DNA of 64,000 bases from Candidatus Eiseniibacteriota bacterium (GCA_036507005.1 DASXQT010000010.1:285-64284); one strand, 5' to 3'; positions 36,219 through 51,978 are shown, numbered from the stretch's first letter. A program made the numbers and translations. The notes: generated from the sequence alone by a model not told the origin.

Positions 36219-37238
36219 TCAGGGCGCGCTGACCGGGAACGGATCGGCGATGACCAGCAGGCGGCCGCGCGCGGGGTCGGCCACGTAGACCTTGCCCCGC
36301 GCCGCGACGCAATGCGAGGCCGCAGCGCCCGGGTAGGTCCCGAGCAGCGTGAGGGCGCCGCGCGGCGAAACGCCCACGATCGCGAGCTTCGCGGTCCGGG
36401 CGCTCGGCACGTAGAGGTGCCTGCGCTCCGGGTCGTAGGCGATGATGTCGATGCCGCCGCCCGCGGGCAGCGCGCCCAGAGTCTTTCCGGTCCTCACGTC
36501 GAGCGCCGCCACCTTGCCCTCGGCGCATGCCACGAACAGGAACCCGCACTCCACGTCCAGGGCGATCCCGGTCGCCCCCGCACAGCCGTTGGGCCAGCTC
36601 GCGAGCACGCGGTGGGTGCGCGTGTCGAACGCCACGGTCCACGACGCGAGGTGGGTGTAGGCCCGCCGGCGCCTCGGGTCGAACACCAGCGACTCGGGCC
36701 CGCCCGCGGTCGGGATGGTCGAGACCGCCGTGAGCTGTGGCGGCGGGCCGGCCTCCAACCGGAAGATCTCGATGCGCTGCGAGTCCGGCTCCGTCACCCA
36801 CAGCTCGCGGCCGGCCTCGAGCCAGCGCACGTAGTCGGGGCTCGCGCCGAGCGCGGTCTCGCCGACGATCGAGCGCGTCGCGGGATCCACCACGAAGAGC
36901 CGGAGCGCGGTGCGGTCGGTGACGAAGAGCAGGCCCGCCCCTTCCGTCACCGACGTGATGCCGACGTCGTGGCGTCCGGAGAATCCCTCGCGGGCGCTGA
37001 AGCCGGGGATCTCCACGACCTTGCCGGTGGCCGGATCCACCAGGTCGAGGCGCCCGGTGCGACCCGCGGGCACGAGCACGCATCCCAGCGCGGGCGAGTA
37101 CCCGAGGTCGTCGAGGCCGACGCCACCTTCGCCGCCGGGCAGGGCGATGGTGGAGGGCGCGCGGCGCGCCGCGAAGGTCGGGCCGGCGGCGAGCAGCGCG
37201 AGGGCGAGCGTCGCGAGACCGCGGCGGAATCCGATCAT
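36219..37238 (-). CDS. secreted YVTN/YncE-like beta-propeller repeat protein
   Basis: Signal peptide MIGFRRGLATLALALLAAGPTFAA. Repeated G..LYV(A/P)..(D/S)..V.V(I/V)D motifs (LFVTDRTALRLFVVDPATR; LYVPSARTAKLAIVGV; VYVADPARGRLLVIAD) indicate a beta-propeller. Confidence 0.7.
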   Translation of the reverse strand: MIGFRRGLATLALALLAAGPTFAARRAPSTIALPGGEGGVGLDDLGYSPALGCVLVPAGRTGRLDLVDPATGKVVEIPGFSAREGFSGRHDVGITSVTEGAGLLFVTDRTALRLFVVDPATRSIVGETALGASPDYVRWLEAGRELWVTEPDSQRIEIFRLEAGPPPQLTAVSTIPTAGGPESLVFDPRRRRAYTHLASWTVAFDTRTHRVLASWPNGCAGATGIALDVECGFLFVACAEGKVAALDVRTGKTLGALPAGGGIDIIAYDPERRHLYVPSARTAKLAIVGVSPRGALTLLGTYPGAAASHCVAARGKVYVADPARGRLLVIADPFPVSAP

Positions 37239-37272
37239 GGAGCGAACGCTACACCTGGAGAGGACACCGGTT

Positions 37273-38661
37273 CTACTCCCCGAATGGCCCCACCAGATCG
37301 ATCGCGCGCGACCAGGAGAGCGTGAAGCGGGCGGGCTCGCGCCCAGGGCCGAGCGGCCACGCGTAGCTCGCGCGCACGAACCCGGTGGGATCGGGCAGGC
37401 CCGGACGCCAGAGCAGCGACGCCCCGGCCTCGAGCGCCCAGTGCTCGGCGTCCGGCCAGTCCACGCCGCCCCGCCGCGGGCCGCCGTAGGGATCGGCGCC
37501 CCACGCCGAGCCCGCGGCCGCGAATGCCGCGGCCTGGAGCGGGAGCCAGGCGGGATGCGGTAGGCGCGCGAGCGCGAGCAGGTCGTGGGCCTCGATCGCG
37601 TCGAGGCGCGCGAGCGCCAGCCCCTCGCCGCCCCGCGATCCGCCGGGGATCGAGCGCAGGGTGTGCGCGCCGCCGAGGAAGAACGCCGCCTGCGGCACGG
37701 GCTCGCCCGAGAGCCTCCCGTACGAAAGCTGGGGCACGATCGCGAGCCAGCGTCCGGCCGCGAGGTCGGCGGCGAGCGAGACCCGCGTGCGCCGGTACTC
37801 GAAGTCGCTCCCCGCGGCGCGGCTCGAGCTGGCGTGCTCGATCTCGCTCCGCACCGGGAGCCGCGGCCAGCGCGCCGCGGCCTCGATCGCGAACTCGTGG
37901 TTGCGGCCGCGCGCGGCGGCGAGGTTGTCGCGCACCGCGGGTGTGGCGCCCGCGAGGTTCCAGGTGACGCGGGTCGCGAGCGGCGACTCGAGCAGGTCGC
38001 GGAAGCCCGCGGCCGCCCGCCAGGACCGGGCCTCGCGCGCGAGCCGGACCTCGAAGCCGTCGCGGCGCAGGTAGCGCTGGTAGTCCTTGCCGGTGACGAA
38101 GGCGTCCAGCATCGCGAACTGCAGGTCGCCGAAGTCGCGGTCCATGCCGTCCGTGCGCCGTCCGGCCGCGAGCCGCAGCGACCAGGTCGCGTCTCCGCGG
38201 CTCAGCGATCGCAGGAAGGCCGCCCCGCCGAGGAGGTCGTTCGGGCCGCTCGCCCAGCCGATCCGGCCCTCGAGCCGGCCCAAGCCCGAGGCTGCGCCGA
38301 TCGCGGCGGCGGCGCCGTAGCTCGGCCCGTCCACGCGGTTGAATCCGAGCTCGGGGCCGAGCGCGGGCCGGCGACGAGCGCGGGGGCGTGCCGCCCCGCG
38401 GGCGAGACCGGAGGCCAGCGCGCTGTCCAGGCCCGCGGTGTCGGTGGGCGCGGCCGAGAGGCCGAAGTAGGCGTCGGTCGAATCGGAGAGGGTCCCGAGG
38501 AAGCGGTCGAGCGCGGTGTCGGGCGGCGCGGGCTGGGCGATGGGCGCGAGCGCCGCGGGCGCCGCGCCCTCCGCGCGGGCGCCGCACGCGAGCAGCGCGA
38601 GCACCGCCGCGGCCGGCGCGAGTGCGACCGCCGCCGCCCGCGCAATCGGCCGGCGGATCAT
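37273..38661 (-). CDS. secreted/outer-membrane hypothetical protein
   Basis: The ATG at 38661 overlaps the upstream stop (ATGA). The signal peptide is MIRRPIARAAAVALAPAAAVLALLACGARAEG. The sequence is Gly/Ala-rich with alternating-pattern segments that suggest a beta-barrel. Confidence 0.6.
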   Translation of the reverse strand: MIRRPIARAAAVALAPAAAVLALLACGARAEGAAPAALAPIAQPAPPDTALDRFLGTLSDSTDAYFGLSAAPTDTAGLDSALASGLARGAARPRARRRPALGPELGFNRVDGPSYGAAAAIGAASGLGRLEGRIGWASGPNDLLGGAAFLRSLSRGDATWSLRLAAGRRTDGMDRDFGDLQFAMLDAFVTGKDYQRYLRRDGFEVRLAREARSWRAAAGFRDLLESPLATRVTWNLAGATPAVRDNLAAARGRNHEFAIEAAARWPRLPVRSEIEHASSSRAAGSDFEYRRTRVSLAADLAAGRWLAIVPQLSYGRLSGEPVPQAAFFLGGAHTLRSIPGGSRGGEGLALARLDAIEAHDLLALARLPHPAWLPLQAAAFAAAGSAWGADPYGGPRRGGVDWPDAEHWALEAGASLLWRPGLPDPTGFVRASYAWPLGPGREPARFTLSWSRAIDLVGPFGE

Positions 38662-39494
38662 CGCCCGCCCCCGTGCGCCACGAAGATCGAGTCGTCGAGC
38701 CCGGCGTTCACGCGGTACTCGTCGAGCCGGAGCGCGAGGTCGAAGGAGCTGCCGAGGACGGGAATCGGCAGGCTGGTCGCGGCGCGCAGCACCACGCGCT
38801 TCAGCACCCAGTACCCGTCCACGCGCTGGCGCTCGATCACCATGCGGTCCACGCTCTTCAGGAACAGCGGCACCGGCGAGCGGTCGAAGCTCACCTCCTG
38901 GCGCACGATCACGAAGTCGTTGGTGTCCACCCACACCAGCCCGCTCGGCAGCGTGGGATCGAGCGAGGAGCGCGGCTGGAACGCGATGCGGTAGACCAGC
39001 CGGTTCCCGAGCAGGTCGCGCCCCACGATGCGGTAGCGGAAGTCGCGGCGCGCCTCGGGCCGGAACGCAAAGTTCACGATCTCCTCGTCCATGCGCGGGC
39101 GGACGTCGATGCTCATGTCCGCGCGCTGCTTGGGGCGCGGGCTCCAGTCGCGCAGCGTCACGCTCCGCACCTTGTCCGGGCGCTTCTTGTAGACGCGCTC
39201 CACGTGCTCGCGCAGCAGCTCGGGCGGGCGCGCGCCGGCCGGGTCGCGCGTCAGGCGCAGGGTGAGGGTGAACGCCTGGTCGCGCATCATCGAGTCGCGC
39301 CGCGCCTCACCGCGGGCCACGCGGTCCAGGATCTCCTCGAGCGTCACGCGCGGCGCGCGCACCAGGATCTCCGGCACCTCGGTGTGCATCGTGTCCTCGA
39401 CCGCGACCGTGGGCAGCGTCGGGCCGGCGCCGGGTGCGGGGGCCCCGGCGGCGAGCGCGGCCGCGAGCAGCATGGGGATGGGGATGAGGAGCAT
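38658..39494 (-). CDS. secreted hypothetical protein (LolA-like/DUF-type), translationally coupled to the downstream gene
   Basis: Internal ATG 39494 gives the signal peptide MLLIPIPMLLAAALAAGAPAPGAG. The stop overlaps the next start. The upstream ORF extension has no support. Confidence 0.6.
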   Translation of the reverse strand: MLLIPIPMLLAAALAAGAPAPGAGPTLPTVAVEDTMHTEVPEILVRAPRVTLEEILDRVARGEARRDSMMRDQAFTLTLRLTRDPAGARPPELLREHVERVYKKRPDKVRSVTLRDWSPRPKQRADMSIDVRPRMDEEIVNFAFRPEARRDFRYRIVGRDLLGNRLVYRIAFQPRSSLDPTLPSGLVWVDTNDFVIVRQEVSFDRSPVPLFLKSVDRMVIERQRVDGYWVLKRVVLRAATSLPIPVLGSSFDLALRLDEYRVNAGLDDSIFVAHGGGR

Positions 39495-39712
39495 GAGAGC
39501 CTCGAGAAGGGGCGGGACACTAGCACGCGGTGCGGCGGCCCCGCCACGCGCCGCGACATCTCCGCGACGGCCGCGCACCAGATCATGGGACCGGGGCGCC
39601 CGTGTGGGCTATTCTTTCCCGCGCCCGAGCAAGATCCCTTCCGGCACGCTGCGTGCGAAGGAACGCACGTGCTCGCACTTCGAACCCACGCAGCTCGAGC
39701 ACGGAGGTCACC

Positions 39713-40546
39713 ATGAAGCCCAGCCGGATCGCCCTTGCCGCGTTCGCGGTTCTCCACGTCGCCGCGCGCGGTGTGCTGGCCCAGGACTCGCCCGCATCCC
39801 AACCCCTCGATCCCTTCGCCGCCGTGCGCCTCGAAGGCCCGGCCGTCGCGGCGCCCGCCGAATTCTCCGCCGCCCCCGCGGCGCCGGCCGCCTACCGTGG
39901 CGGGCCGCGCCTCGACGCGGTGCGCTATCGCCCGCGCTATCGCGATGGCTACCGCGAGCGCTCGGGCGGGTACGTGCACTCGTCGCCCGCGCAGATCCAC
40001 GCCGGATTCTTCGACCCCGAAGGGAACGGCGCCACCAGCTTCGCGATCGGATTCCGTGGCGGGCCCGCGGTCGACGAGCACATCCAGCTCGGCTTCGGGG
40101 CCGACTGGTATCACAAGTCGGAGAGCCGGCGGGAAGTGCAGGGCACGACGTTCCAGGGCGGGCAGCCCGTCACCGTCACCCGTGTGCTCGCGCGCGCCTC
40201 CTCGAACCTCTTCCCGTTCCAGGCCTACCTGCAGGTGAGCGGCGGCGACAACCTGTCCGTCATCCCCTACTTCGGGGTCGCGGGCGAGTACCAGGTGCTG
40301 CTGCTCTCGGCCACCGACTACCAGACCGGAGCGGACTTCGACGCCACGTTCGGCGGCTGGGGGTGGCAGGTGTGGGGCGGAGCGGCGCTGCCGCTCTCGG
40401 GGCGGTCGCGCATGTTCGGCGAGGTGTTCGTGAACAACGGCGACGTCGAGCGCGACGTCGACGACCCCGCGAGCGGCGTCACGTTCCGCGAGAGCGTGAA
40501 CGCCGACGGCGTCGGAATGCGCTTCGGCCTGAGCTGGGGGTTCTAG
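39713..40546 (+). CDS. outer-membrane beta-barrel protein (OmpA-N/OmpW-like barrel)
   Basis: SD ACGGAGG. Signal peptide MKPSRIALAAFAVLHVAARGVLAQD. The C-terminal aromatic residue (...GMRFGLSWGF) is typical of OM barrels. Confidence 0.7.
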   Translation: MKPSRIALAAFAVLHVAARGVLAQDSPASQPLDPFAAVRLEGPAVAAPAEFSAAPAAPAAYRGGPRLDAVRYRPRYRDGYRERSGGYVHSSPAQIHAGFFDPEGNGATSFAIGFRGGPAVDEHIQLGFGADWYHKSESRREVQGTTFQGGQPVTVTRVLARASSNLFPFQAYLQVSGGDNLSVIPYFGVAGEYQVLLLSATDYQTGADFDATFGGWGWQVWGGAALPLSGRSRMFGEVFVNNGDVERDVDDPASGVTFRESVNADGVGMRFGLSWGF

Positions 40547-40704
40547 CCCCAAGCCGCGCCGGCACGTCCCGCGCCGGCACGTCCTGCCCGCCGACTCAGT
40601 CCTGCGCCGCCGCCGACATTGCCAAATCTTGCCGGCGCCGGTTTTGCCCTATCCCGAACTCGTCACGCTCAAGGCTCGCGAACGCCCGCTTCCGGTCAAT
40701 TCCA

Positions 40705-40735
40705 TTGACAGACATGGGGCGGCTGCTAGCGTTTT
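40705..40735 (+). promoter_or_regulatory. candidate promoter: TTGACA-N16-TAGCGTTTTG
   Basis: TTGACA at 40705-40710. TAGCGT at 40727-40732 is followed by TTTG. A near-identical arrangement occurs at 61034-61064. The intergenic region is lower in GC. Confidence 0.3.
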
Positions 40736-40841
40736 GCGTTCGGCAGTGCGGCGCTCGGGGCGTTGCAGGCATCCAAGTTAGTTCGAGGGGGGGCATCGGT
40801 CCGGCCCAATGCAGCGCGCGAGTCCGGAAGGAGGGACAGCC

Positions 40842-41309
40842 ATGAGGAAAGACATCATCGCGGGTTTCTCGATCATGCTCCTCGCGGGAGTTCTCGGAGC
40901 GAGCGTGGCCATGGCAACAACCGCAGTTCACCGGGCGTCCGGCGGCGGCACGGTGGACTGGCCGCTGGCCCGCGTGACTTACGGGTTCACGGCGGAGATC
41001 GACGCCGATGGAGTCGTCACCGGCGAGGCGGAGTTCCAGCATCGCGACCTGGGCGTCCACAACCACGTCGAGATCACGTGCCTGACCGTGATCGGCAACG
41101 ACGCCTGGATCGGCGGAGTGATCCGGGAGTCGAACATCCCCGAGCTGGTGGGAGTGCAGATCGTGTGGCGGGTCCAGGACAATGGCGAGGGAACTGGGAA
41201 CGTCGACAAGACCAGCATCGTGGTGCCCAACACCACGCTGGGCGACTGCAACCTGATGCCGGCTCTCGGCCTGATTCCCTGGACCAGCGGCAACGTGCTG
41301 GTGAAGTAG
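40842..41309 (+). CDS. secreted hypothetical protein
   Basis: SD GGAAGGAGGG. Signal peptide MRKDIIAGFSIMLLAGVLGASVAMA. Confidence 0.6.
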   Translation: MRKDIIAGFSIMLLAGVLGASVAMATTAVHRASGGGTVDWPLARVTYGFTAEIDADGVVTGEAEFQHRDLGVHNHVEITCLTVIGNDAWIGGVIRESNIPELVGVQIVWRVQDNGEGTGNVDKTSIVVPNTTLGDCNLMPALGLIPWTSGNVLVK

Positions 41310-41412: not shown

Positions 41413-42285
41413 ATGGCTCGCAAGTCTCCGCGCGCGCGACGCAAGTCCGAGTCCCCGCGCATGCCGGGCACCGGCCGGCCGCGCGCCACGCCCGGACGGA
41501 GCCGCTCGAGCGCCAAGCGCACCGCCCGCCGCAAGCGCGTGGCGCATGCGATCCAGGGCGCGCGGCCCGCCGCCCGCCGGACGCAGCGCCGGGCGCGGCT
41601 GGTCGAGGTGCGGGGCCGAAGGCGGGCACGCCCGCGGTTCATGCCGCCCGATCCCGCGCGCGTCGCCGCGCTGCTCGACATCCTCGAGCGCACCTATCCG
41701 GAAGCCACCACCGCGCTCTCGTTCGGCAATCCCCTCCAGCTCCTGGTCGCCACGATCCTCTCCGCGCAGTGCACGGACGAGCGCGTGAACTCGGTCACGC
41801 CCGGGCTGTTCGCGCGCTATCCGGATGCGGCCGCGTTCGCCGCGGCCCCCCAGGCCGAGCTGGAGCAGGCGATCCGCTCCACCGGGTTCTTCCGCAACAA
41901 GGCCCGCTCGATCCGCGAAGCCAGCGCGGACATCGTCGGCAAGCACGGAGGCCGCGTGCCGAGCTCGCTCGAGGCGCTGACAGAATTGCGCGGCGTGGGG
42001 CGCAAGACCGCCAACGTCGTGCTCGGGAACGCATTCGGCATCCCCGGCATCGTCGTGGACACGCACGTGCAGCGCCTGTCCCGGAGGCTGGGGCTCACGA
42101 ACGAGACCGATCCGGTCAAGATCGAGTTCGCGCTCATGCCGATCGTGCCGCGCGAGCGCTGGACCCGGTTCTCGCACTGGCTCATCCTGCACGGACGGAG
42201 GGTGTGCGTGGCGCGCAAGCCGCGCTGCTCGATCTGCCCCCTCGCACCCCACTGCCCGCGCGTGGGGGTGACCACCTCGCAGTAG
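41413..42285 (+). CDS. nth: endonuclease III (DNA glycosylase/AP lyase) with basic N-terminal extension
   Basis: HhH-GPD motif LTELRGVGRKTANVVL.., catalytic D in VVDTHVQRL, and the [4Fe-4S] cluster loop CVARKPRCSICPLAPHC. Confidence 0.9.
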   Translation: MARKSPRARRKSESPRMPGTGRPRATPGRSRSSAKRTARRKRVAHAIQGARPAARRTQRRARLVEVRGRRRARPRFMPPDPARVAALLDILERTYPEATTALSFGNPLQLLVATILSAQCTDERVNSVTPGLFARYPDAAAFAAAPQAELEQAIRSTGFFRNKARSIREASADIVGKHGGRVPSSLEALTELRGVGRKTANVVLGNAFGIPGIVVDTHVQRLSRRLGLTNETDPVKIEFALMPIVPRERWTRFSHWLILHGRRVCVARKPRCSICPLAPHCPRVGVTTSQ

Positions 42286-42305: not shown

Positions 42306-44192
42306 ATGAAGCGCAAGCGCAGCGAGCCGGGCGATCCGGAGCGCGGCCCGGCCGCGGACCGCGCGGCGGGCACGGAGCCCCGCGCTGCGGCTCCGGCGCC
42401 CGTGCCGGGCGCGGGGCCGGCGCCCGTTCCACCGACGGCCGCGGACCGCGCGGCGGGCGTGCTGGCCGCGGCGCTCGCGCTGCTCGCGGTCGCGCGCCTC
42501 GCGCTCGGGCTGCGTCCCTCGATGTGGCTGTGGGGGCTCGACGCGCTCGCGTTCGTGCCCCCGGTTCCGGGCTGGCTGCTGTGGGCGCTCGCCGCGCTCG
42601 CGCTGGTCCCGGCGCTCGCGCGCCCGGCGGGCGCGGCGCTCGCGCGCGCCGGAGACGCGATCGCCGACCGGCCCGCGCTCGCGAGCTTGGCACTCGGCGC
42701 GTTCCTGGCTACGACCGTGCTCCTGCTTCCCGATCGGCTCGAGCTGGTGGGTGACTACCTGCTGCGGGTCGGGACCGCGCGCGGCCAGATCCCGACCGAC
42801 ACGGTGTTCCCCCAGGCCCTGCCGCTCGACCTCGCCCTCCACTACACCGTGCCCAGCCTGTTCGCGCACGGCTTCACCGGAGATCCCAACGACGTTTCGC
42901 GCGTCCTCGGCGCGATCGAGGCCGCGATCCTGGCCGCGCTCGCGGTCGCCTTCGCGCGCGCGCTCCGGCTGCGTGGGGCGGCGGCGGCCGCGGCGGTCGC
43001 GACGGTCACCTTCGGCGGGGCGCTCGGCATGTTCACGGGGTTCGCCAAGGTATTCGGCGAGCTGTGCCTGGTCGCCACCGCCTTCGGCGCCTTCGGCATC
43101 ACCGCCGTGCGCGACGGGCGCGGGCTGCTGCCGCTCTCGCTCGCCGTGAGCGCGGGCCTCGTGCTCCACCGCTCGGCGCTCGCGTTCCTGCCGCCGCTCG
43201 CCGTGGTGTGGGCGGCGTGGCTCCGCGCCGACGGCGCGGGCGGAGCGTGGCGGCGCCCGGCCGCGATCGCGGCGCTCGCGCTCCCGCCCGTCACGCTCGC
43301 CCTGATGCTGCCGCGCATCCGCGCGGCGATCGAGAGCACCGACCGCCTGCACTTCGCGCGCGCGGGCGCGGGGCCGGCGCAGATCCTGGGCGCGGCGTTC
43401 CGCGGACTCCACCTCGCCGACCTCGGGAACCTCCTGCTTCTGCTTTCGCCGCTCGCGCTCGCCGGGATTCCGCTCGCGCTCGCGCTCCCGCCCGCGCTGC
43501 GGCGGCGGCCCGAAGCCCTGGTGCTGCTCGCGCTCGCCGTTCCGTTCGCGGGGCTCCTGCTCTTCGTCCACCCGCGCCAGGGCCAGTTCCGCGACTGGGA
43601 CGTGTTCACGCCCGCCGCGGTCGCGCTCTCGCTCCCCGCCGCCTGGCTGATCGGCGAGACGCTGCGCGCGCTGCGCCACGCCTGGCTCGCGGCCGCCGTG
43701 GTGCTCGGAACGCTCGCGCCCGCGGTGCAATGGCTGATGCACAATCACGACCTCGACCGCGGGATGGCGCGGGTCGAGGCCTACATCGCGGGCCCGCCCG
43801 CGCGCGGGGACGACGAGCGCGCCACGCTCCACAACTTCCTCGCGCTGCGCGACGAGGAGTACGGGCGGCTGGACGCCGCGGCGGAGAGCTACGCGCGGGC
43901 CGCCGCGCTCGCGCCGAGCCCGCGCATCCTGCTCGAGTGGTCGCTGGCCGAGACGAATCGCGGGCAGTACGCGAAGGCGCAGGGCATCCTGCGCGGGCTC
44001 GTGGAGCGTGCGCCCGGCCTGATGATGGCGTGGTCGCAGCTCGCCTACGTCTCGTATCAGCTCGGCGACACCGCCGAGTGCGTGCGCGCGGCGCGCGGCG
44101 CGCTCCGCATCGACCCCGGCCTGGCCGAGGCCCGGGGTCTGCTGAGCCGCCTCGCGCCCCCGGAGAGCGCGCATGTCGCGCCCGCTCGCTGA
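42306..44192 (+). CDS. polytopic membrane protein with C-terminal TPR domain, paralog 1 of 3 (unassigned family; glycosyltransferase-like architecture)
   Basis: About 10 hydrophobic helices are followed by TPRs (YARAAALAPSPRILLEWS..; AWSQLAYVSYQLGD). Motifs shared by all three paralogs: SMWLWGLD, VGDYLLR, FPQALPLDLALHY, LHRSALAFLP, GQFRDWD. Confidence 0.75.
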   Translation: MKRKRSEPGDPERGPAADRAAGTEPRAAAPAPVPGAGPAPVPPTAADRAAGVLAAALALLAVARLALGLRPSMWLWGLDALAFVPPVPGWLLWALAALALVPALARPAGAALARAGDAIADRPALASLALGAFLATTVLLLPDRLELVGDYLLRVGTARGQIPTDTVFPQALPLDLALHYTVPSLFAHGFTGDPNDVSRVLGAIEAAILAALAVAFARALRLRGAAAAAAVATVTFGGALGMFTGFAKVFGELCLVATAFGAFGITAVRDGRGLLPLSLAVSAGLVLHRSALAFLPPLAVVWAAWLRADGAGGAWRRPAAIAALALPPVTLALMLPRIRAAIESTDRLHFARAGAGPAQILGAAFRGLHLADLGNLLLLLSPLALAGIPLALALPPALRRRPEALVLLALAVPFAGLLLFVHPRQGQFRDWDVFTPAAVALSLPAAWLIGETLRALRHAWLAAAVVLGTLAPAVQWLMHNHDLDRGMARVEAYIAGPPARGDDERATLHNFLALRDEEYGRLDAAAESYARAAALAPSPRILLEWSLAETNRGQYAKAQGILRGLVERAPGLMMAWSQLAYVSYQLGDTAECVRAARGALRIDPGLAEARGLLSRLAPPESAHVAPAR

Positions 44193-46020
44193 GACGCGGC
44201 CCGGCGCCGCGCGCGCGCGGGCCGCGGGCGCGCGCGGGGCGCTGCCCGCCGAGCCATCGCGACTCGATTCCGCGGCCGCCGGGCGCGCCGCGCTCGCCGC
44301 ATGGGCCGCGCTCGTCGCGCTCGCCGGGGCGCGCGCGGCGCTCGCCTTCGCCCCCTCGACCTGGGCGTGGAGCCTGGCGCTGCTGCGCTTCCTGCCGCCC
44401 GTGCCGGGCTGGGGACTGTGGGCGCTTTCGGCCGTGACGCTCCTGCCCGCCGTCGCGCGGCTCGCCGCTCCGGCGGGCGCGCGCTTGGGCGACGCGGCGG
44501 CGCGTGCGCCCGCGCTCGCGGCTGCGGCGTGGGCCGCGGGCGGCGCGGCGTTGGCGTGGAGCCTTCCCGACCGCGCCGGGTTCGTCGGCGACTTCCTGCT
44601 GCGCGAGAACACCCTCGCCACCCAGGGCGTGTCGCTCGCGGAGTGGTATCCGCAGGCGCTCCCCCTGGACCTCGCGATCCACCACCACTTCGCCCGCGCG
44701 CTCATGCTCGCGACCGGCGCGACCGCGGCCGACGCGGGGCGGCTGATCGGCGCCGGCGACGCCGCGCTCATGGGCTGGCTCGCCGCGCTCTTCGCGCGTG
44801 AGCTCGCGCTGCGCGGGGCGGCCTCGTTCGCCGCGAGCGCCGCGGTGTTCGGGACCGGAGCGCTCACGCTCTTCACCGGCTACAACAAGGCGTTTGCCGA
44901 GATGACGCTGCTGGTCGCGGCGATCGGCATCCTCGGCCTCGGCGCCGCGCGCACCGGGCGCGGGCTCGTGCCCCTGCTCGCCGTCGCGGCCGCGGGCCTC
45001 ACGCTCCACCGCTCGGCGCTCGGCGTCCTGCCCGCGCTCGCGCTCGCGTGCGGGTGGGCGCTGCGCGCGGGCGGCCGCGCGGCGCTGAGGCGGCCCGCGA
45101 CCTGGGTCGCGCTCGCGCTGCCCATCGTGTCGCTCGCGTTCATGGTGCCGCGCATCGTCCACATCGTGCGCCACGTGGACCCGATCCACTTCACGCCCGC
45201 CGAGCCGGGACGGAGCGCCCTGGCCTCCGCGTTCGCGGGCGCGCGCCCCGCCGACATGCTGAACCTGATCGTGATGCTGGCGCCGCTCGCGCCCGTGGCC
45301 CTGGCCGCCGCCTTTGCGCTCGGCCCCGCGCTGCGCCGGCGCGAGGTCGCGCTGCTCGTGGCACTCGCCGCTCCCTTCGTTGCGCTCATCCCGTTCCTCC
45401 ACGCGCAGCAGGGCCTGTTCCGCGACTGGGACGACTTCGCCGCGGGCGGCATGGGCGCAACGCTGCTCTCCGCGTGGATCCTGGCCGAGACCCTGCGCGC
45501 CGCGCGCGCGCGTTCGTGGCTCGCGGTGCCGCTCGCGCTCGCGGCGCTCGCCCCCAGCGCGCAGTGGCTCGTGCACCACACCCAGCCGGAGCGCGCGCTC
45601 GCGCGGGTGCGCGCGTTCGTGGAGGAGCCGCCGTCGCGCACCTCGTTCGAGCGCGCGATGACCTGGCAGTATCTCGGCATGACCTACCTCGCCATGCACC
45701 GCGGCCCGGAGGCTGCGGACGCCTACGCGCACGCCGCCGAGCTGCTGCCGAGCCCGTACATCCTGCGCCAGCTCGGCATCGCCCAGTCGCTCGCGCGCCG
45801 CTACGGGAGCGCCGTCCGGACGTTCCGCACGCTCCTCGAGCGCGTGCCCGGCGACATCACCGCGCTGCGAGGGCTGATGCTGATGAGCCTTCCCGGCCAC
45901 GACACCGCCCAGGCGCGCGCCGCCGCCGAATCGCTGCTGCGCGTCTCGCCGCGGGATCCGCAGGCGATGGAGTTGCTGCGCCAGCTCGAGCGCGGGATCG
46001 GCAATGCGCGGCCGCGGTAG
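44173..46020 (+). CDS. polytopic membrane protein with C-terminal TPR domain, paralog 2 of 3
   Basis: The start overlaps the upstream gene by 20 nt. The same motif set is present (STWAWSL, VGDFLLR, YPQALPLDLAIHH, LHRSALGVLP, GLFRDWDDF). Confidence 0.75.
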   Translation: MSRPLAETRPGAARARAAGARGALPAEPSRLDSAAAGRAALAAWAALVALAGARAALAFAPSTWAWSLALLRFLPPVPGWGLWALSAVTLLPAVARLAAPAGARLGDAAARAPALAAAAWAAGGAALAWSLPDRAGFVGDFLLRENTLATQGVSLAEWYPQALPLDLAIHHHFARALMLATGATAADAGRLIGAGDAALMGWLAALFARELALRGAASFAASAAVFGTGALTLFTGYNKAFAEMTLLVAAIGILGLGAARTGRGLVPLLAVAAAGLTLHRSALGVLPALALACGWALRAGGRAALRRPATWVALALPIVSLAFMVPRIVHIVRHVDPIHFTPAEPGRSALASAFAGARPADMLNLIVMLAPLAPVALAAAFALGPALRRREVALLVALAAPFVALIPFLHAQQGLFRDWDDFAAGGMGATLLSAWILAETLRAARARSWLAVPLALAALAPSAQWLVHHTQPERALARVRAFVEEPPSRTSFERAMTWQYLGMTYLAMHRGPEAADAYAHAAELLPSPYILRQLGIAQSLARRYGSAVRTFRTLLERVPGDITALRGLMLMSLPGHDTAQARAAAESLLRVSPRDPQAMELLRQLERGIGNARPR

Positions 46021-47800
46021 AGGCGCGGCGCCAGCCCGCGCGACGCCGGCCGCCGCGCCCGAGGCGGCCGCGCGCGCCGCGTCGGCGCTCTGGTGGGTGC
46101 TCGCGATCTCCGCGGTCGCGCGGCTCGCGCTGGCGTTCGTTCCCTCGATGTGGCTCTGGGGCCTCAACGTTCAGCGCTTCCTCGCGACGGCGGCGGCGTG
46201 GGCGCCATGGGCGGCCGCCGCGCTGGCGCTTCATCCCGCGGTCGCCCGGGCGCTCCTCCCCGCGCTCGCGCGCGCGGGCAATGCGCTCGCCCGCCCGCGC
46301 GGAGTGGTGGTGGCGGCGCTCCTCGCCGCGATCCTCGTGCTCGCTCTGCCGGACCGCGTGCGGTTCGTCGGCGACTTCCTGCTGCGTCAGGGTACCGTGG
46401 AGCAGGCGGGGCGGCCCGCCGTGCTCTTCCCCCAGGCGCTGCCACTCGACGTGCTCCTCCACTACACGCTGCCGCGCACGCTGGTCGACATGCACCTGCT
46501 CGCCGCCAACGGCGCCGCGCGCGCGCTCGGGGCGCTCGAAGCCGCGCTGCTCGCCGCGCTGGCTGTCGCGTTCGCCCGGGGGCTGGCGATGCGCGACGCG
46601 GCGGCGCTCGCCACCGCCGCCGTCGTGTTCTTTGGTGGCACGCTCACCATGTTCACCGGGCTCGGCAAGGCATTCACCGAGATGGTGCTGCTGGTCGCCG
46701 CTCTCGGCGTCTTCGGCCTGCGCGTGCTGCGTGAGCGGCGGGGGCTCCTGCCGCTGGCCGCGACCCTCGCCGCCGGGCTCGCCCTCCACCGCTCGGCGCT
46801 CGGGCTCGTGCCCGCCGCGGCCCTCGCGTTCGCCTGGGGCGCGAGGCCGCATGCGGCCGAGGGCGAGGCGGTCCTCCGCCATCCGAAGGCGGAGTGGCTC
46901 ACCGCCGTCTCGATCGCGGTCCTCGCGCTCGCCGTGATGCTGCCGCGCATCGTCGCCACCATCCTGCGCTGGGACCCGATCCATCTCACTCCCCCCGAGG
47001 TGCGGGAGCAGGGCGTGGTGCGCGCCGCGTTCGCCGGCACGCGGCCCGCCGACCTGCTGAGCCTGGTCACCGCGCTCTCGCCGCTCGCGCTCGCGATCCC
47101 GCCGGTCGCGATCCTGCTCGGGCGCATCCCCGGTCGCGGGCGCGAGCTGGCGCTGCTCTCGGCGCTCGCCGTGCCCTTCGTGCTCAGCATGCCCCTGCTT
47201 CATCCCGCGCAGGGGCTGTTTCGAGATTGGGACGACTTCGCCGGCGCCGGGGAGGCGCTCTCGCTCGTCGCCGCGTGGCTCGTGGCCGAGACCCTGCGCG
47301 CGGCCCCTGGCCGCGCGTGGCTCGCGAGCGGCGTGACGCTCGCGGCCACCACCGCCGCGCTTCAGTGGCTCGCGCACTTCACGGACATCGAGCGCGGGCT
47401 AACGCGGGTCGAGGCGTTCATGAGCGAGCCGCCGCGGCGCACCGACGTCGAGCGCGGCAAGACCTGGGACTACCTCGGCATCCGCAACTTCCGTCTCGAG
47501 CGCTGGGACGCCGCCGCCCGCGCGTTCGCCCGCGCCGCCGAGACCTCGCCCAGCCCGCGCATCCTGCTCGAGTGGGGCACCGCCGAGCTGCGCCGGGGCG
47601 ACTTCCGCGCCGCGCAGCCCCTGTTCCGGCGCGTGATCGCGGCGAACCCGAAGGACGTCCACGCCTGGTCCGGGCTCGCCGCCGCCGCCATGGCGCTCGA
47701 CCAGCGCGACGAGGCGCGGCGCGCGGCCGAGGAGGTGCTGCGGCTCAGTCCTGGCGATGCGTTCGCGCGGCGGACGCTGGAGCGGCTCGGCGCGCCGTAA
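46004..47800 (+). CDS. polytopic membrane protein with C-terminal TPR domain, paralog 3 of 3
   Basis: The start overlaps the upstream gene by 17 nt. Motifs SMWLWGLN, VGDFLLRQGT, FPQALPLDVLLHY, LHRSALGLVP, GLFRDWDDF. A hairpin CGCCCCCG-n13-CGGGGGCG follows at 47830-47859. Confidence 0.75.
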   Translation: MRGRGRGAAPARATPAAAPEAAARAASALWWVLAISAVARLALAFVPSMWLWGLNVQRFLATAAAWAPWAAAALALHPAVARALLPALARAGNALARPRGVVVAALLAAILVLALPDRVRFVGDFLLRQGTVEQAGRPAVLFPQALPLDVLLHYTLPRTLVDMHLLAANGAARALGALEAALLAALAVAFARGLAMRDAAALATAAVVFFGGTLTMFTGLGKAFTEMVLLVAALGVFGLRVLRERRGLLPLAATLAAGLALHRSALGLVPAAALAFAWGARPHAAEGEAVLRHPKAEWLTAVSIAVLALAVMLPRIVATILRWDPIHLTPPEVREQGVVRAAFAGTRPADLLSLVTALSPLALAIPPVAILLGRIPGRGRELALLSALAVPFVLSMPLLHPAQGLFRDWDDFAGAGEALSLVAAWLVAETLRAAPGRAWLASGVTLAATTAALQWLAHFTDIERGLTRVEAFMSEPPRRTDVERGKTWDYLGIRNFRLERWDAAARAFARAAETSPSPRILLEWGTAELRRGDFRAAQPLFRRVIAANPKDVHAWSGLAAAAMALDQRDEARRAAEEVLRLSPGDAFARRTLERLGAP

Positions 47801-47859: not shown

Positions 47860-48094
47860 CCTGGTGATCGAGTCCAGCTCTAGACCGCAGCGGCCGGCTG
47901 CTCGGCGCCGTCCTCGATGGTGTGGTGAGGGAGCGCGCGAAGCTCGACCTCGGTCAGCTCGAGGCCGAGACGCCGCTGGGGGTCGAATCCCGGGGGACCT
48001 TTCAAGGCGGGAAGATGTCGGGGCCGGAGTAGAAGGTGCTACGCTCCGTAGCGCAATCGTAACACCCACGTTGAGTCTGTGCAGGAGACCGAGC

Positions 48095-48904
48095 ATGGCC
48101 CCATCGGTGATTGATTCGCTTCAGGGAGTGGTCGTCCATCAAGAGGCCCTGATTCTCGCCCTCAATCATCGTGTCGACTCGCTGCTGGCCGCCGTTCCCG
48201 ACACCGTGCGAGACACCATCTGGGCTGGTTTCATGGACCAGCGACCACATGGACTCGGAATCGCGCCAAAGGACGTGATCGGATGGGTGGTGACTGCTGC
48301 CGGCATTTTCGCGGCAGGCTGGGTCGCGCGGACTGGCTGGAATCGATCAGACAGTGCGGGACGCCGTTTGCAGAAGGATCGTCACGAAACCGAAGAACGG
48401 AGGATGCGCGAGCAACTCGTGCTTCGGATCCGCGGAACACTGGAGACGATGAGAGCCACCGCCGCGTCGACGCTGAAGAAGGACGCCACTCACCCGATCA
48501 ATCCAGAGACCATGAACAACATCCTCGTCGCCTGGAAGCGCTTCGACCGCGTGTCGGACAACTTGTGGCTGCTCAATGACCTCGTGATGCAGGACCGGAT
48601 CGAGACAATCACGGAGTTCGGGCGCATGACTGCCGAAAAGATCAGGGAGGACGAGCAGCGGTTCCGCGAGACCCGCGTACTCCTAGGGCAGAGGTCTCCG
48701 GAGGCGTTGATTGTCCACCCCTCGCTCGTCACGCGGGCCGTGGACCAGCGCACAAAGCTGCTGACGGTCGTGACGAAGCTCCGTGACACGACAGCTGGGC
48801 TTCTGATCGATTTCAACGCCAAATGGCCGCCGGTGGCCGGGCACACTGAGCGCACCGAACCCGAAACTAGCAGCGACGAAATGCCTCCGGTCAATCCGAG
48901 CTAG
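48095..48904 (+). CDS. hypothetical protein (one predicted TM helix), islet gene
   Basis: SD GCAGGAG before ATG 48095. TM segment VIGWVVTAAGIFAAGWVA. No family recognised. The 3' end overlaps the convergent gene by 4 nt. Confidence 0.55.
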   Translation: MAPSVIDSLQGVVVHQEALILALNHRVDSLLAAVPDTVRDTIWAGFMDQRPHGLGIAPKDVIGWVVTAAGIFAAGWVARTGWNRSDSAGRRLQKDRHETEERRMREQLVLRIRGTLETMRATAASTLKKDATHPINPETMNNILVAWKRFDRVSDNLWLLNDLVMQDRIETITEFGRMTAEKIREDEQRFRETRVLLGQRSPEALIVHPSLVTRAVDQRTKLLTVVTKLRDTTAGLLIDFNAKWPPVAGHTERTEPETSSDEMPPVNPS

Positions 48905-49473
48905 CGCCGGACCCCGCGTGAGCGTGACCGTCGGGGAAACCATTGAAGAAAGAGAGGGCCACGGTAGGCGTCCAACTTTCGGCGCAGCGTGTAGAGATCC
49001 CCGATTGCCGTGAGGAACGGCATCGTGCCGAGGGACGAGATGCCCGCTGGAAGCAACGACGTCGGGCTGCCCTCGGGCACAAATGGCAGTTGGGCGGGCT
49101 TGTAGTTCTGCTGTTGCCAGTAGGCGGTCGAGTAGGCGCTCTTGATCTTGTCTCGGATCTCCATCTCGAGCGGCGGGTTCTCGAGTTCAGAGACGCGGGC
49201 TTCCGAATCGACAAGTTCCTTTAGCCACGTAACGCACTGAGACAGGTGCCAAGGCTGGTAATACTGAGCCTGCATCTTCTGTTGGTTCTCAGCTTCCTTC
49301 AATCCGTCGGAGATCTTTCCGAAGTAGTGGTGCAGGTGGCGAGCTGTAGTCTGACGCCTTACGGCTCGTTGAAACCAGTGCCGGAAGTAGATGGCGTACA
49401 CACTCACGGCTGCGCCACCGATGAACGCTGTGATCGTCTTTGGCGTTATCCAAGCGGATAGCCACGACGGCAT
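48901..49473 (-). CDS. hypothetical membrane-anchored protein, islet gene
   Basis: N-terminal TM helix (ITAFIGGAAVSVYAIYF). Lower-GC codon usage. No family recognised. Confidence 0.55.
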   Translation of the reverse strand: MPSWLSAWITPKTITAFIGGAAVSVYAIYFRHWFQRAVRRQTTARHLHHYFGKISDGLKEAENQQKMQAQYYQPWHLSQCVTWLKELVDSEARVSELENPPLEMEIRDKIKSAYSTAYWQQQNYKPAQLPFVPEGSPTSLLPAGISSLGTMPFLTAIGDLYTLRRKLDAYRGPLFLQWFPRRSRSRGVRR

Positions 49474-49794
49474 TGTGTTCGCTCCTCCTTGATCGCATAC
49501 GCCCCCTTTCCCACTGAGAGCGCAGCTTCGAAAGATGGCGGCGAATGAGCCTCGTTAGTTGGCGTTCCAGAGCAGGCCGTAGACCAAGTCGACTGAGCGT
49601 GGGTGGGCCTGGCTTTTGTCTACCCTCGAACTTCAGCCGGTTTTGGTGACGCGGACTCGCTGACGACCGCTAGAGACTGTTTGGGCAACAAGAGTCGGCC
49701 GCGGGATGCAGCCGCGACCAGCTTCTGGCTTCGAAACGGAGTTTTCGTGCTCTGCATCAGCATGCGTTCAGCGTGGCAGGTCCATGGGCGTCGT

Positions 49795-50496
49795 CTAGGG
49801 TGACTTGTCCACAGGCGCCCGTGAGTCCACGATCGACAGCAGATGGCTCGCGAGGATGATCATCTCAACCGACTCCTTCGGTTGAAGGTCGATCGGACGA
49901 TGACTGTGTGGGTTCTTGTACGATCCGATTGCCCCGACAAAGAGGTCTCGCAGCGCCTGTCGCTCGCCACCCTCGCGATCCATGTTAGTCAGCGGACCGC
50001 CTTCGGGATTGAACGCCGCCTTCATAAGGGCGACACCGATGTCCTTGTCATGGAAACCGCCGGCCGCGCGCACCGAAATCTCGACCTCCCGGAACGCCTC
50101 AAACACCGCGTTCTGGTAATCCCCGCGAGCAAATGCCTTCCAAACACGACTCAGAAGCTTCGGATGGAGCAGGTCTTTCGAAAGGAGGGTCGCGAGGCGC
50201 ATATCAGCAAACGACCCCGCAGCAGCGGCCTTGCCTTTCTTCGAGACGGAGTACCAGTCGTCAGTGGACCTCGTGAGGAAGCCCTGGGCTTCGAGAATGC
50301 TCCAAGCTCCCAGGAAGAGCTGCTCGACCCACTCTTCGCGGCCGAATGCTCTCCAACAGTCTCCCCGGAAGTTGTAACGGTTGAGCTTGGCCCTGTTCTC
50401 TTCGCTGGTCACGAGGAAACGTAGCAGCGCTTCGGAAATGTCCTCAGGCGCCAGTTCACGTACCACGGCGACTGGAAAGCTCACTTGCAAGGTCAT
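49795..50496 (-). CDS. TIGR02391 / Hypoth_Ymh (PF09509) family protein
   Basis: The C-terminal region LHPKLLSRVWKAFARGDYQNAVFEAFREVEISVRAAGG...IGVALMKAAF...LRDLFVGAIGSYKNPHSHRP...EMIILASHLLSIVD fits the Hypoth_Ymh consensus (AVFEAFK.VE..VR, G..LM..AF, G.....RNP.AH, ASHLL..VD). The start is taken at the internal ATG 50496. The longer ORF to 50604 would overlap the integrase start head-to-head. Confidence 0.65.
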   Translation of the reverse strand: MTLQVSFPVAVVRELAPEDISEALLRFLVTSEENRAKLNRYNFRGDCWRAFGREEWVEQLFLGAWSILEAQGFLTRSTDDWYSVSKKGKAAAAGSFADMRLATLLSKDLLHPKLLSRVWKAFARGDYQNAVFEAFREVEISVRAAGGFHDKDIGVALMKAAFNPEGGPLTNMDREGGERQALRDLFVGAIGSYKNPHSHRPIDLQPKESVEMIILASHLLSIVDSRAPVDKSP

Positions 50497-50596
50497 CTCT
50501 AGGGCCTTCCTGACACCGACCCTCCTTCGGGGGGGCCCTGTACCGGTTCGTGGAGGCTCGGGAAGGATAGTTCCGATGCCGAAACGACCAAAAAAC

Positions 50597-51150
50597 ATGG
50601 TCAAACACGGGAGAATGTACTACTTCCGCGACAAGGCCGGCGGGCGTGATCGCCGCGTCTCCGCCCCCGGAACGATTACGGCGAAGCACTCGTCCGGTTT
50701 CGATCTTTGAAACGCGGTCGCCGTTCCCGCGGCGACTGCCGAGGATTCAGGAGCGACCGCCGGATCGACTGAGCGACGGCGAGATCGAGCGGGTGTTCTC
50801 GCTCGAGGATCCGTACGGGTTCATCGGACGATTCCTGGTCGGCACTGGCCTGCGGTGGGGCGAGCTGACAAGGGCCCGGTCTTCTGATGTCTCGGGCAGC
50901 CGGCTCCGCCCCTTGCGGAACGCGGACGGCTTCAATGTCCAGATTCGCGGGCGGGCAGGGATTCCGGGCTTCAATGCTCACCAGCTTCGGCACACATTCG
51001 CGTGCGGGTAGCTGGATGCTGGCGGAAGTCTGGCCGCTCTTCAGGAAATCCTCGGGATCGCCTCGATCGTGACGACGCAGCGTTACGGCCGTCTCGGCGA
51101 GGCGCACGCGCAGGCCGAAGCAGCACGATTGCAGGGGACGGCACCTCTCT
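50597..51150 (+). pseudogene. tyrosine recombinase/phage integrase remnant (fragmented: frameshift plus in-frame TAG)
   Basis: Frame 2 encodes the integrase N-terminus (MVKHGRMYYFRDKAGGRDRRVSAPGTITAKHSS). Frame 0 encodes the catalytic-domain pieces (LSDGEIERVFSL, FLVGTGLRWGELTRARSSDV, HQLRHTFACG), then a TAG at 51013-51015, then LDAGGSLAALQEILGIASIVTTQRYGRL (the conserved LLGH.S..TTQ.Y.H tail). The total is far shorter than an intact ~350-400-aa integrase. Confidence 0.7.
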
Positions 51151-51171
51151 AAGTCGTGTACCTACGGCCCC

Positions 51172-51220
51172 GGAGAGGTGCGAGAGCGGCTGAATCGCGC
51201 GGTCTCGAAAACCGCCCAAG
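51172..51220 (+). tRNA. tRNA-Ser(CGA) 5' fragment (acceptor 5' strand, D-arm, anticodon arm); no T-arm or 3' acceptor, so probably a pseudo-tRNA or att remnant
   Basis: GGAGAGG-TG-CGA-GAGCGGCTGAA-TCG... GCGGT-CTCGAAA-ACCGC. U8 and the D-loop GG are present. AGCGGCTGAA and GGTCTCGAAAACC are near-identical to E. coli tRNA-Ser(CGA). Downstream sequence lacks GGTTCGAATCC or the acceptor complement. Confidence 0.5.
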
Positions 51221-51294
51221 AGGACAGATTCGTTCGCCCATGGCCTGCCGACGCCTCCGCCTGCTCGCCGACGCCGCGCCTAGCGGCGGGCGCC

Positions 51295-51978
51295 TCACCA
51301 ATACAAGCTGAGCCCCAGCGTGTACGTCATCAGGTTCCCGCCGATGTGCGCCGCGACCACGCGCGCGTACTCGGCCTCGAGGCCCAGTCCCAGCGACTGC
51401 CGTATCCTGAAGTCGTAACCCGCGGCCGCGGTGGCGGCGAACCCGGCGTCCTGTTGCCATACCCCTCCGGAGCCGGCGGGCGCGAGGGTCTCCACCCGCT
51501 CCTCGCACACTCCGCCGCCGCCGCGCACGTAGAAATGGCGCGCGCTTGGGTACGCCGTGGCGGTCGCGGTGATGATCTCGAGCCGGCGGTCGAGGCCCGA
51601 CTGCGAACCAGTCCAGCCCCTGGCCTGGAACCCCGCGAGCACGCCGGGCGCCACAACGTGTCCGACACGAAACTGCGTCATGGTTCCGGACTTGCGGCCG
51701 AGCGGATCGCCTTCCATGTCCAGGCTGCCGGCGCCCATGTTCAGGCCCAGCACCCAGGCGCTCGGCTTCAGCGGCGTGCGCTCCTTCGGGGCTTTCGGCG
51801 CCTTCGCGACCTTGGGTGCCTTCTCGGCTTTCGGCGCCTTGGGCGGCTTCGGCGCCTTCTCGTGCTTCTCGGCCGCGGGCTTCGACTCTTTCGGGGTCTT
51901 CGACTTTGCCGCCGCCGGCGAAGGAAGCGCGAGGGCGGCGCACAGGAGGAGCAGCAGGGGCAGCGGAATGCGCTTCAT
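51295..51978 (-). CDS. outer-membrane beta-barrel protein with N-terminal Lys/Pro/Ala (KAPK) repeat linker
   Basis: Signal peptide MKRIPLPLLLLLCAALALPSPAAA. KAPKPPKAPKAEKAPKVAKAPKAPK repeats. The C-terminus ...YTLGLSLYW has the terminal aromatic of an OM barrel. Confidence 0.7.
   Translation of the reverse strand: MKRIPLPLLLLLCAALALPSPAAAKSKTPKESKPAAEKHEKAPKPPKAPKAEKAPKVAKAPKAPKERTPLKPSAWVLGLNMGAGSLDMEGDPLGRKSGTMTQFRVGHVVAPGVLAGFQARGWTGSQSGLDRRLEIITATATAYPSARHFYVRGGGGVCEERVETLAPAGSGGVWQQDAGFAATAAAGYDFRIRQSLGLGLEAEYARVVAAHIGGNLMTYTLGLSLYW

Follow-up and report, generated by a model that had tools for sequence, protein, structure and literature searches.

Several described glycosyltransferases of the GT-C superfamily join a polytopic membrane domain to tetratricopeptide repeats (TPRs). 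TfpW, the D-arabinofuranosyl transferase of the Pseudomonas aeruginosa pilin, is by description an inner-membrane protein of 646 amino acids (aa) with a cytoplasmic N-terminus, a GT-C domain of multiple transmembrane (TM) helices, an acidic motif in a periplasmic loop and a periplasmic C-terminal TPR domain. TMTC1-4 (GT105) and TMEM260 (Pfam TMEM260-like/DUF2723) are eukaryotic protein O-mannosyltransferases of the endoplasmic reticulum that use dolichyl-phosphate mannose (Dol-P-Man) and also combine an N-terminal GT-C domain with an extracytoplasmic C-terminal TPR domain, which is thought to select protein clients; their acceptors are cadherins and IPT domains, that of TfpW is pilin, and the several TMTC paralogs serve different clients. 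The superfamily further includes ALG9 and ALG12 (GT22) and ALG3 (GT58), which are Dol-P-Man mannosyltransferases of the GT-CA class acting on lipid-linked oligosaccharides, and PMT/POMT (GT39), AftA, AftB, AftD and ArnT (GT83), which depend on polyprenyl-phosphate-linked sugars and have active sites facing the periplasm or lumen. Here we analyse three consecutive paralogous genes, each encoding a polytopic membrane domain followed by a small TPR domain, in a 64,000-nucleotide stretch from a Candidatus Eiseniibacteriota bacterium (GCA_036507005.1, DASXQT010000010.1:285-64284). This whole stretch is called the window below, and positions are counted from its first nucleotide.

42306..44192, + strand: paralog 1, 628 aa; membrane domain ~42306-43760, TPR domain ~43761-44189; NCBI HEY2954004.1
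44173..46020, + strand: paralog 2, 615 aa; membrane domain ~44173-45597, TPR domain ~45598-46017; NCBI HEY2954005.1
46004..47800, + strand: paralog 3, 598 aa; membrane domain 46004-47383, TPR domain 47384-47797

The reading we favour, with moderate confidence, is that these genes form an operon-like array of periplasm-facing, polyprenyl-phosphate-sugar-dependent GT-CA glycosyltransferases whose TPR domains would select the acceptor. The gene structure, the paralogy, the confident models, fold matches limited to GT-C, the conservation and the charge bias of the loops are observed; how the helices correspond, which residues are catalytic and what serves as donor and acceptor we infer from predicted structures and by analogy with solved enzymes.

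A first-pass annotation of the window had reported three consecutive related genes downstream of nth, and the open reading frames (ORFs) listed above bear this out. All three have a G+C fraction at third codon positions of 0.93–0.95 in their reading frame, in a window of ~73% G+C. The paralogs are 44–48% identical in pairwise comparison, with 49–52% identity in the membrane part and 37–45% in the TPR part. A hidden Markov model (HMM) of the membrane domain scored 744–778 bits on each paralog, far beyond chance, and matched only these three, so that the window holds no further copies. Every motif named in the first-pass annotation was found in all three proteins: PS[MT]W[LA]W[GS]L, PDRxxxVGD[FY]LLR, [FY]PQALPLDxxxH, LHRSAL and QG[LQ]FRDWD.

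Membrane and TPR domains

The Pfam and NCBIfam matches of the three paralogs were confined to TPR repeats in the last ~135 residues. Paralog 3 was clearly above the Pfam threshold (TPR_2, 3.3e-11). Paralog 1 passed TPR_14 narrowly (24 bits, cutoff 23.5), and paralog 2 fell short for TPR_2 (25 bits, cutoff 27). In a structural model of paralog 3, the TPR helices lie at residues 462–594 (8 helices by DSSP) and match the CTPR3 and RPAP3 TPR structures with target TM-scores (TMt) of 0.8–0.9 and root-mean-square deviations of 1–2 Å. The C-terminal part is a small TPR domain of ~3.5 repeats, confirming the domain that the first-pass annotation had placed there, by Pfam models for paralogs 3 and 1 and by structural matches for paralog 3.

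The membrane domain matched no known family. Pfam (E ≤1) and NCBIfam searches with the three paralogs gave no match in the N-terminal ~460 aa, and none of the Pfam GT-C families (PMT, PMT_2, TMEM260-like/DUF2723, Glyco_transf_22, ALG3 and others) reached threshold on it. When the membrane domains of 30 diverse members, divergent ones included, were searched against Pfam at E ≤10, only noise was returned, with TMEM260-like at E = 3.6 in one of the 30. Judged by these searches, the membrane domain is an orphan at the sequence level, and the first-pass annotation, which had proposed a Pfam search of this region, was right to leave its family assignment open.

Structural models gave a clearer picture. 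The full-length model of paralog 3, obtained with AlphaFold2 from a 54-sequence alignment, had a predicted local distance difference test (pLDDT) score of 91.7 and a predicted TM-score (pTM) of 0.92, the latter implying that the TPR domain is packed in a fixed arrangement on the membrane domain. A Foldseek search with this model was swamped by TPR structures and says nothing on the membrane domain, which was therefore modelled alone (paralog 1, aa 44-485; AlphaFold2, pLDDT 87, pTM 0.91) and searched against PDB. Twelve of the 50 matches listed were chains of GT-C enzymes or GT-C-like subunits, with Foldseek probabilities of 0.75–1.00 and query TM-scores (TMq) of 0.30–0.49. The best match was ALG9 (E = 4e-3, TMq 0.46); the others included AftA (0.49), Pmt4 (0.48), ALG12 (0.41), ALG3 (0.39), AftB (0.38), AftD (0.38), yeast STT3 (0.35), PIG-U (0.34) and Pmt1/2 (0.30). 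The other 38 were transporters and similar proteins with TMq ≤0.17 and probability ≤0.28. The matches are thus weak in E-value yet consistent and exclusive to GT-C folds, and they support a resemblance of the modelled membrane domain to GT-C at the level of the fold. The first-pass annotation had likened the membrane-plus-TPR architecture to protein O-mannosyltransferases and related glycosyltransferases and had proposed comparing models with GT-C folds; at the fold level this likeness is upheld, only GT-C proteins agreeing meaningfully with the membrane-only model. Neither of the outcomes that the annotation had named as speaking against it, a clear match to an unrelated transporter family or the lack of a GT-C-like fold, was found.

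The same matches could be read as a helical-bundle artefact, the proteins then being transporters or GT-CB/Wzy_C-type enzymes (O-antigen ligase or polymerase, SEDS-like) with an added TPR domain. Bacterial proteins that combine Wzy_C with TPR do exist, the Foldseek E-values are no better than 4e-3 with TM-scores below 0.5 throughout, and sequence support for GT-C is absent: Pfam, NCBIfam and PDB profile searches give no sequence-level link to any GT-C family, searches of PDB sequences and profiles with membrane-domain profiles returned no relevant match (a full-length profile found TPR proteins only), and hhalign comparison of family alignments with Escherichia coli ArnT, which is also absent from the fold matches, gave a probability of 0.1%. 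Against such an artefact stand the low scores of all transporter matches, the absence of any WaaL, RodA or FtsW chain (SEDS and GT-CB proteins) from the 50 listed matches, and the lack of a Wzy_C or transporter Pfam match in the 30 members even at E ≤10. We therefore regard an origin outside GT-C as highly improbable and continue with the GT-CA assignment.

The assignment is one of structure, and sequence comparisons place the proteins apart from each of the described systems. ALG9, ALG12 and ALG3 are among the best structural matches; they are 12–13% identical to the present proteins, show no HMM-level similarity to them, and have neither a TPR domain nor the two-helix N-terminal extension proposed below. 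Pmt4 and AftA are also among the best, but the extracytoplasmic domains of PMT, Aft and ArnT enzymes are MIR, carbohydrate-binding or other domains, and Pfam PMT and PMT_2 do not match here. Pfam TMEM260-like and PMT_2 likewise fail to match the present family; the TMTC and TMEM260 families have no significant sequence similarity to each other either. By structure, the paralogs thus appear to be part of the GT-C (GT-CA) superfamily, yet they match none of the tested GT-C families that are defined by sequence, and we regard them as a new family at the sequence level.

Topology, conserved residues and a proposed mechanism

Topology was derived from the helices of the paralog 3 model, hydropathy and charge statistics over 280 family members. 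The models show ~13 TM helices, more than the ~10 per protein that the first-pass annotation had estimated. A 13-TM arrangement in which the N-terminus is cytoplasmic and the TPR domain periplasmic is the best-supported prediction. With this orientation, the short loops predicted to be cytoplasmic carry on average 12.8 Lys/Arg vs 3.4 Asp/Glu per protein, and the predicted periplasmic loops 9.7 Lys/Arg vs 10.3 Asp/Glu. Conservation reaches ≥95% in 29 columns of the membrane domain, and 20 of these lie in predicted periplasmic loops (W52, R58, D117, G123, D124, R128, P147, D149, H153, G212, G219, K222, H262, R263, D324, P401, G404, R407, D408 and D410) and one, P78, in a cytoplasmic loop; the charged residues among the conserved ones are nearly all on the predicted periplasmic side. 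A 12-TM topology, with residues 62-74 and 78-95 as periplasmic helices of luminal loop 1 and the TPR domain in the cytoplasm, was rejected: the short loops rich in Arg would then face outwards and every conserved acidic loop inwards, luminal loop 1 would have no acidic residue, and the loop lengths would not match those of GT-C.

GT-CA enzymes share a conserved 7-TM module in which luminal loop 1 forms two helices, the first bearing the catalytic base, and luminal loop 4 spans the donor groove. Behind it comes a variable module, made up in ALG9 and ALG12 of four TMs and a luminal C-terminal domain (PMC13503287). A typical GT-C member has 11 TMs with the N-terminus inside and the C-terminus outside. 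Its loops show four recurring features: loop 1 bears an acidic DxD-like motif soon after the TM helix, loop 3 bears a basic residue, the last four helices are preceded by a large conserved loop, and the last short loop contains an Arg (PMC6801728).

The loops of the present family would fit this pattern if TM3 corresponds to GT-C TM1. Helices 1–2 would then be a lineage-specific extension, helices 3–9 the conserved 7-TM module and helices 10–13 the variable module. No acidic residue is conserved in the loop that follows TM1 (aa 46-61), whereas the one after TM3 (aa 115-167) forms helices at 125-133 and 147-162, with a short turn at 138-141, and contains D117 and D124. On the same mapping the long loop 324-346 comes after the seventh helix of the module, and another four TMs precede the TPR domain on the periplasmic side, an order that mirrors the ALG9/ALG12 layout of 7-TM module, two-helix loop 1, loop 4, 4-TM module and luminal C-terminal domain. 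Three conserved segments of paralog 3 are of particular relevance to this mapping.

46346..46504, + strand: periplasmic loop aa 115-167, candidate GT-C luminal loop 1, from model helices and residues ≥95% conserved in 280 sequences; contains PDRVRFVGDFLLR (D117, D124, R128) and FPQALPLDVLLH (D149, H153)
46784..46801, + strand: LHRSAL (H262-R263), predicted periplasmic turn between TM7 and TM8, invariant in the 54-, 30- and 280-sequence alignments
47210..47233, + strand: QGLFRDWD (R407, D408, D410), short loop joining TM11 to TM12, predicted periplasmic, ≥95% conserved

The equivalent loop-1 motifs begin at 42729 in paralog 1 and 44566 in paralog 2, and the equivalents of QGLFRDWD lie at 43578-43601 and 45409-45432. 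No GT-C acidic loop had been recognised in the first-pass annotation. This was probably wrong, as D117 and D124 (PDRxxFVGD) stand at the start of a predicted two-helix periplasmic loop, which may have been missed because the putative N-terminal extension displaces it by two helices. As for basic residues, H262-R263 and R407 are invariant or ≥95% conserved, with K222 in the preceding loop; H262-R263 would by analogy be a candidate ligand of the donor phosphate, equivalent to the Arg or Lys of GT-C luminal loop 3. The RDWD motif had been put forward as a catalytic or metal site. Its conservation holds and its loop is predicted to be periplasmic, but by analogy it would correspond to the last short loop, where the Arg that binds the donor phosphate is found, and not to the catalytic base. 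The proline of the GT-C Rx4-14P pattern is not conserved in this family.

These positions suggest a mechanism modelled on solved GT-CA enzymes. A polyprenyl-phosphate-linked sugar would enter a groove embedded in the membrane, and its phosphate would be held on the periplasmic side by K222, H262/R263 and R407. D124 or D117, at the start of the two-helix loop, is the candidate catalytic base that would activate the acceptor hydroxyl, and transfer of the sugar would be inverting. Choosing the acceptor, or a partner, is probably the role of the TPR domain; the acceptor would most likely be a protein of the envelope or one that is exported, as with TfpW, TMTC1-4 and TMEM260, and the three old paralogs would probably serve different acceptors.

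Besides the faint E-values and the missing sequence-level link described above, several points weigh against this proposal. First, TM2 is short (~16 residues), and if it is not a true span the orientation flips throughout. Second, the canonical GT-C acidic position is empty unless the mapping with two extra helices holds, and the equation of TM3 with GT-C TM1 rests on the topology argument. Third, known three-component systems of extracytoplasmic glycosylation unite a GT2 polyprenyl-phosphate-sugar synthase, a GtrA-like flippase and a GT-C enzyme; clustered partner genes of this kind were not found here, with no Pfam match to a GT2 synthase or GtrA-type flippase near the genes in the window or in five related loci (L001, L002, L003, L022 and L037). 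The partners may be encoded elsewhere.

The described TPR-bearing enzymes also differ from the present ones in detail. In TfpW, 11 TMs are predicted and the first periplasmic loop carries a DDX motif, compared with 13 TMs and no acidic residue after TM1 here. The TfpW gene adjoins those for its pilin substrate and for the D-arabinofuranose precursor, whereas neither pilin nor sugar-precursor genes were found in the neighbourhood of the window genes or of annotated relatives. TMTC and TMEM260 proteins have 11 TMs with the catalytic Asp directly after TM1, and TMTCs carry far more TPRs. What would set the present family apart is the putative two-helix N-terminal extension, together with its restriction to one candidate phylum.

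Distribution, gene neighbourhoods and possible acceptors

Paralog 3 has 417 relatives at E ≤0.001 among 8,000 candidates scored. Nearly all of the 120 listed are ~560–680 aa long with a C-terminal TPR domain, and those with a name are called "TPR protein" or "hypothetical". An exhaustive search with the membrane-domain profile returned 838 clusters at 50% identity, 260 of them below 1e-30, with a constant architecture of ~600 aa. Among GTDB species representatives, 32 loci were found, nearly all in metagenome-assembled genomes of Candidatus Eisenbacteria/Eiseniibacteriota; a few came from unlabelled or otherwise-named bins and may be mis-binned. The family is essentially confined to Candidatus Eisenbacteria.

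An nth gene followed by two or three tandem copies recurs in 10 loci, and in many, the window included, SbcD and SbcC lie downstream. In a neighbour-joining tree, the window copies group by position with those of related loci: paralog 1 with L006_1, paralog 2 with L006_2 and L004_2, and paralog 3 with L006_3. Positional orthologs are 59–71% identical vs 44–47% between paralogs, and the copies are therefore old and retained, having arisen before these lineages separated. The order of the genes is not kept throughout, since L007_2 groups with paralog 1. The genomes also contain dispersed, divergent members of 30–40% identity.

Four loci with two-copy arrays (L002, L003, L008 and L009) have a gene for an S49 (SppA-like) peptidase of ~800 aa between nth and the first copy, overlapping the start of the first family member by 14–20 nt (L002 5682-8105; L003 5769-8177; also L008 and L009). 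The encoded protein has a signal peptide, an N-terminal domain without a Pfam match and an SppA-like C-terminal part matching Peptidase_S49. The overlap hints at work on exported proteins. The TPR domains being more diverged than the membrane domains, the old retained copies and the recurring peptidases for exported proteins are compatible with paralog-specific protein clients; the first two would also suit the different substrate specificities that the first-pass annotation had suggested from the tandem retention of three diverged copies.

Recurring peptidases also suit a non-catalytic role, in which a GT-C-like scaffold, comparable to PIG-U in the glycosylphosphatidylinositol (GPI) transamidase, would use its TPR domain to present substrates to nearby proteases (S49, S41 or Zn peptidase). 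The fold matches include PIG-U (rank 34), which is a GT-C-like subunit without catalytic activity, peptidase genes stand beside members in several places (S49 in the four loci, S41 or Zn_peptidase_2 by the divergent class), and the full-length model matches LbcA, the TPR partner of the CtpA protease (rank 47), a match generic to TPR. However, ~20 polar or charged residues in predicted periplasmic loops are ≥95% conserved in members down to 30% identity, and this density looks like an active site rather than a scaffold; moreover, no peptidase gene lies beside the array in the window. A purely scaffolding function accordingly seems very unlikely to us, and catalysis by GT-CA glycosyltransferases the better account.

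One class of these divergent members, 30–36% identical to the window copies, was observed in L020, L022, L024, L026, L028, L029, L031 and L033 (for example L022 5366-13526). Genes always found near it encode a beta-eliminating lyase, a tetrapyrrole-type methylase, a CDP-alcohol phosphatidyltransferase, a myo-inositol-1-phosphate synthase, thymidylate kinase (tmk) and an S41/PDZ (CtpA-like) peptidase, and Zn_peptidase_2 adjoins it in four loci, directly upstream in L026, L029 and L031 and directly downstream in L024. The orientation of this block varies, and it may be a lead to inositol lipids or proteases or mere regional synteny.

These neighbours bear on the nature of the acceptor. GT-C glycosyltransferases like ArnT, AftA/B/D, PimE and the ALG enzymes glycosylate lipids or glycans, and the present proteins might act on an inositol-phospholipid glycolipid, on lipid A or the lipopolysaccharide core, or on a polysaccharide, with the TPR domain docking the enzyme to partner proteins instead of choosing the acceptor. 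The best fold matches, ALG9, ALG12, ALG3 and AftA, act on lipid-linked glycans; in 9 loci the divergent class lies a few genes from those for myo-inositol-1-phosphate synthase and CDP-alcohol phosphatidyltransferase; and no gene for a candidate protein acceptor, such as a pilin, is adjacent. On the other hand, the inositol-lipid genes sit among housekeeping genes (tmk, ilvC) and are inverted in several loci with respect to the paralog, which points to regional synteny rather than an operon, and the characterised enzymes that combine GT-C with TPR (TfpW, TMTC and TMEM260) modify proteins. A lipid or glycan acceptor is a serious rival, though on balance an unlikely one, to the protein acceptor that we prefer.

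A broader proposal is a new CAZy-level GT-C family of bacteria specific to Candidatus Eisenbacteria, with at least four paralogs per genome, performing periplasmic protein O-glycosylation in which the TPR domain of each paralog would choose its own set of exported proteins, coupled to envelope proteases (S49, S41 or Zn peptidase) and with a relocated catalytic loop. This wider proposal is tentative, and we hold it to be doubtful rather than probable. If true, it would describe a bacterial counterpart of the client-specific O-mannosylation by TMTC and TMEM260, with an unusual two-helix N-terminal extension.

Organisation and surroundings of the array

The gene directly upstream of the array is placed as follows.

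41413..42285, + strand: nth (endonuclease III); TIGR01083 6.4e-77, HhH-GPD, EndIII FeS domain

Its stop lies 20 nt before paralog 1, and nth is probably transcribed together with the paralogs, to which it has no obvious functional connection. With the starts used here, paralogs 1 and 2 overlap by 20 nt (44173-44192) and paralogs 2 and 3 by 17 nt (46004-46020), as the first-pass annotation had reported, and a Shine-Dalgarno-like GGAGA stands 6 nt 5' of the paralog 2 ATG. The starts of the 628-aa and 615-aa forms are also the NCBI calls. For paralog 3 the 598-aa form is the JGI call, and the NCBI protein (HEY2954006.1, 567 aa) begins at GTG 46097, within predicted TM1. The NCBI start is probably too far downstream; the longer form (ATG 46004) is favoured because of the JGI call, the conservation 5' of the GTG in paralogs and homologs, and the helix predicted by AlphaFold2 at residues 19-43. 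The overlaps are not kept in relatives, where intergenic gaps of 4–100 nt occur. Hence, of the translationally coupled tandem described in the first-pass annotation, the operon is well supported and the coupling only plausible. A scan for promoters and terminators gave nothing beyond shuffled controls, and tRNA and Rfam scans of the window were empty.

The nth ORF itself has an extremely Arg-rich N-terminal extension of ~80 aa (41413-41660). The TIGR01083 match begins at residue 84, and relatives are annotated with 204–299 aa; translation either begins further downstream or yields an enzyme with a basic tail. Upstream of nth, a conserved block (36219-41309) is syntenic with L003, L006 and L007. 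It encodes, on the - strand, orphans of 339 aa and 462 aa and a weakly LolA-like protein of 278 aa and, on the + strand, a secreted protein of 277 aa ending in ...SWGF, a C-terminus resembling that of outer-membrane beta-barrels, and a secreted protein of 155 aa. None of the block's proteins has a significant Pfam match.

Directly after paralog 3 follows a low-GC islet (47860-51300; GC 0.60–0.65 vs 0.72–0.78 around it). It is missing from the syntenic loci L002, L003 and L037, in which other genes and, beyond them, SbcD/SbcC come after the array. Its ORFs encode orphans of 346 aa and 189 aa and a Hypoth_Ymh (PF09509) protein; PADLOC gave weak matches only (PD-Lambda-3_B at 5e-6, HEPN-like), and no tRNA lies nearby. 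The islet may represent an insertion, defensive or mobile in nature, that was gained by horizontal transfer.

Elsewhere in the window, predicted secreted proteins at 17167-18438 and 26103-27917 end in a FlgD_ig-like domain, one of them also with CBM_4_9. In the FCB group, C-terminal Ig-like domains of this type often mark secreted or surface cargo, and these two proteins could be candidate glycosylation substrates.

The family fills an annotation gap: ~838 clusters are known only as "TPR repeat protein" or "hypothetical", and their 460-aa core is covered by none of the sequence models of Pfam, NCBIfam or PDB. Assigning it to the GT-C fold offers a biochemical role that can be tested, and a new CAZy family or domain model could grow from it. 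Both the enzyme class and the architecture of GT-C plus TPR are already known, so the finding extends their known range rather than changing it. To the repeated combination of the two domains in TfpW, TMTC and TMEM260 it would contribute one more example from bacteria. To our knowledge, nothing is known of the envelope of Candidatus Eisenbacteria; if the proposal is true, multi-paralog, periplasm-facing glycosylation would be among the first concrete clues to the surface chemistry of these bacteria.

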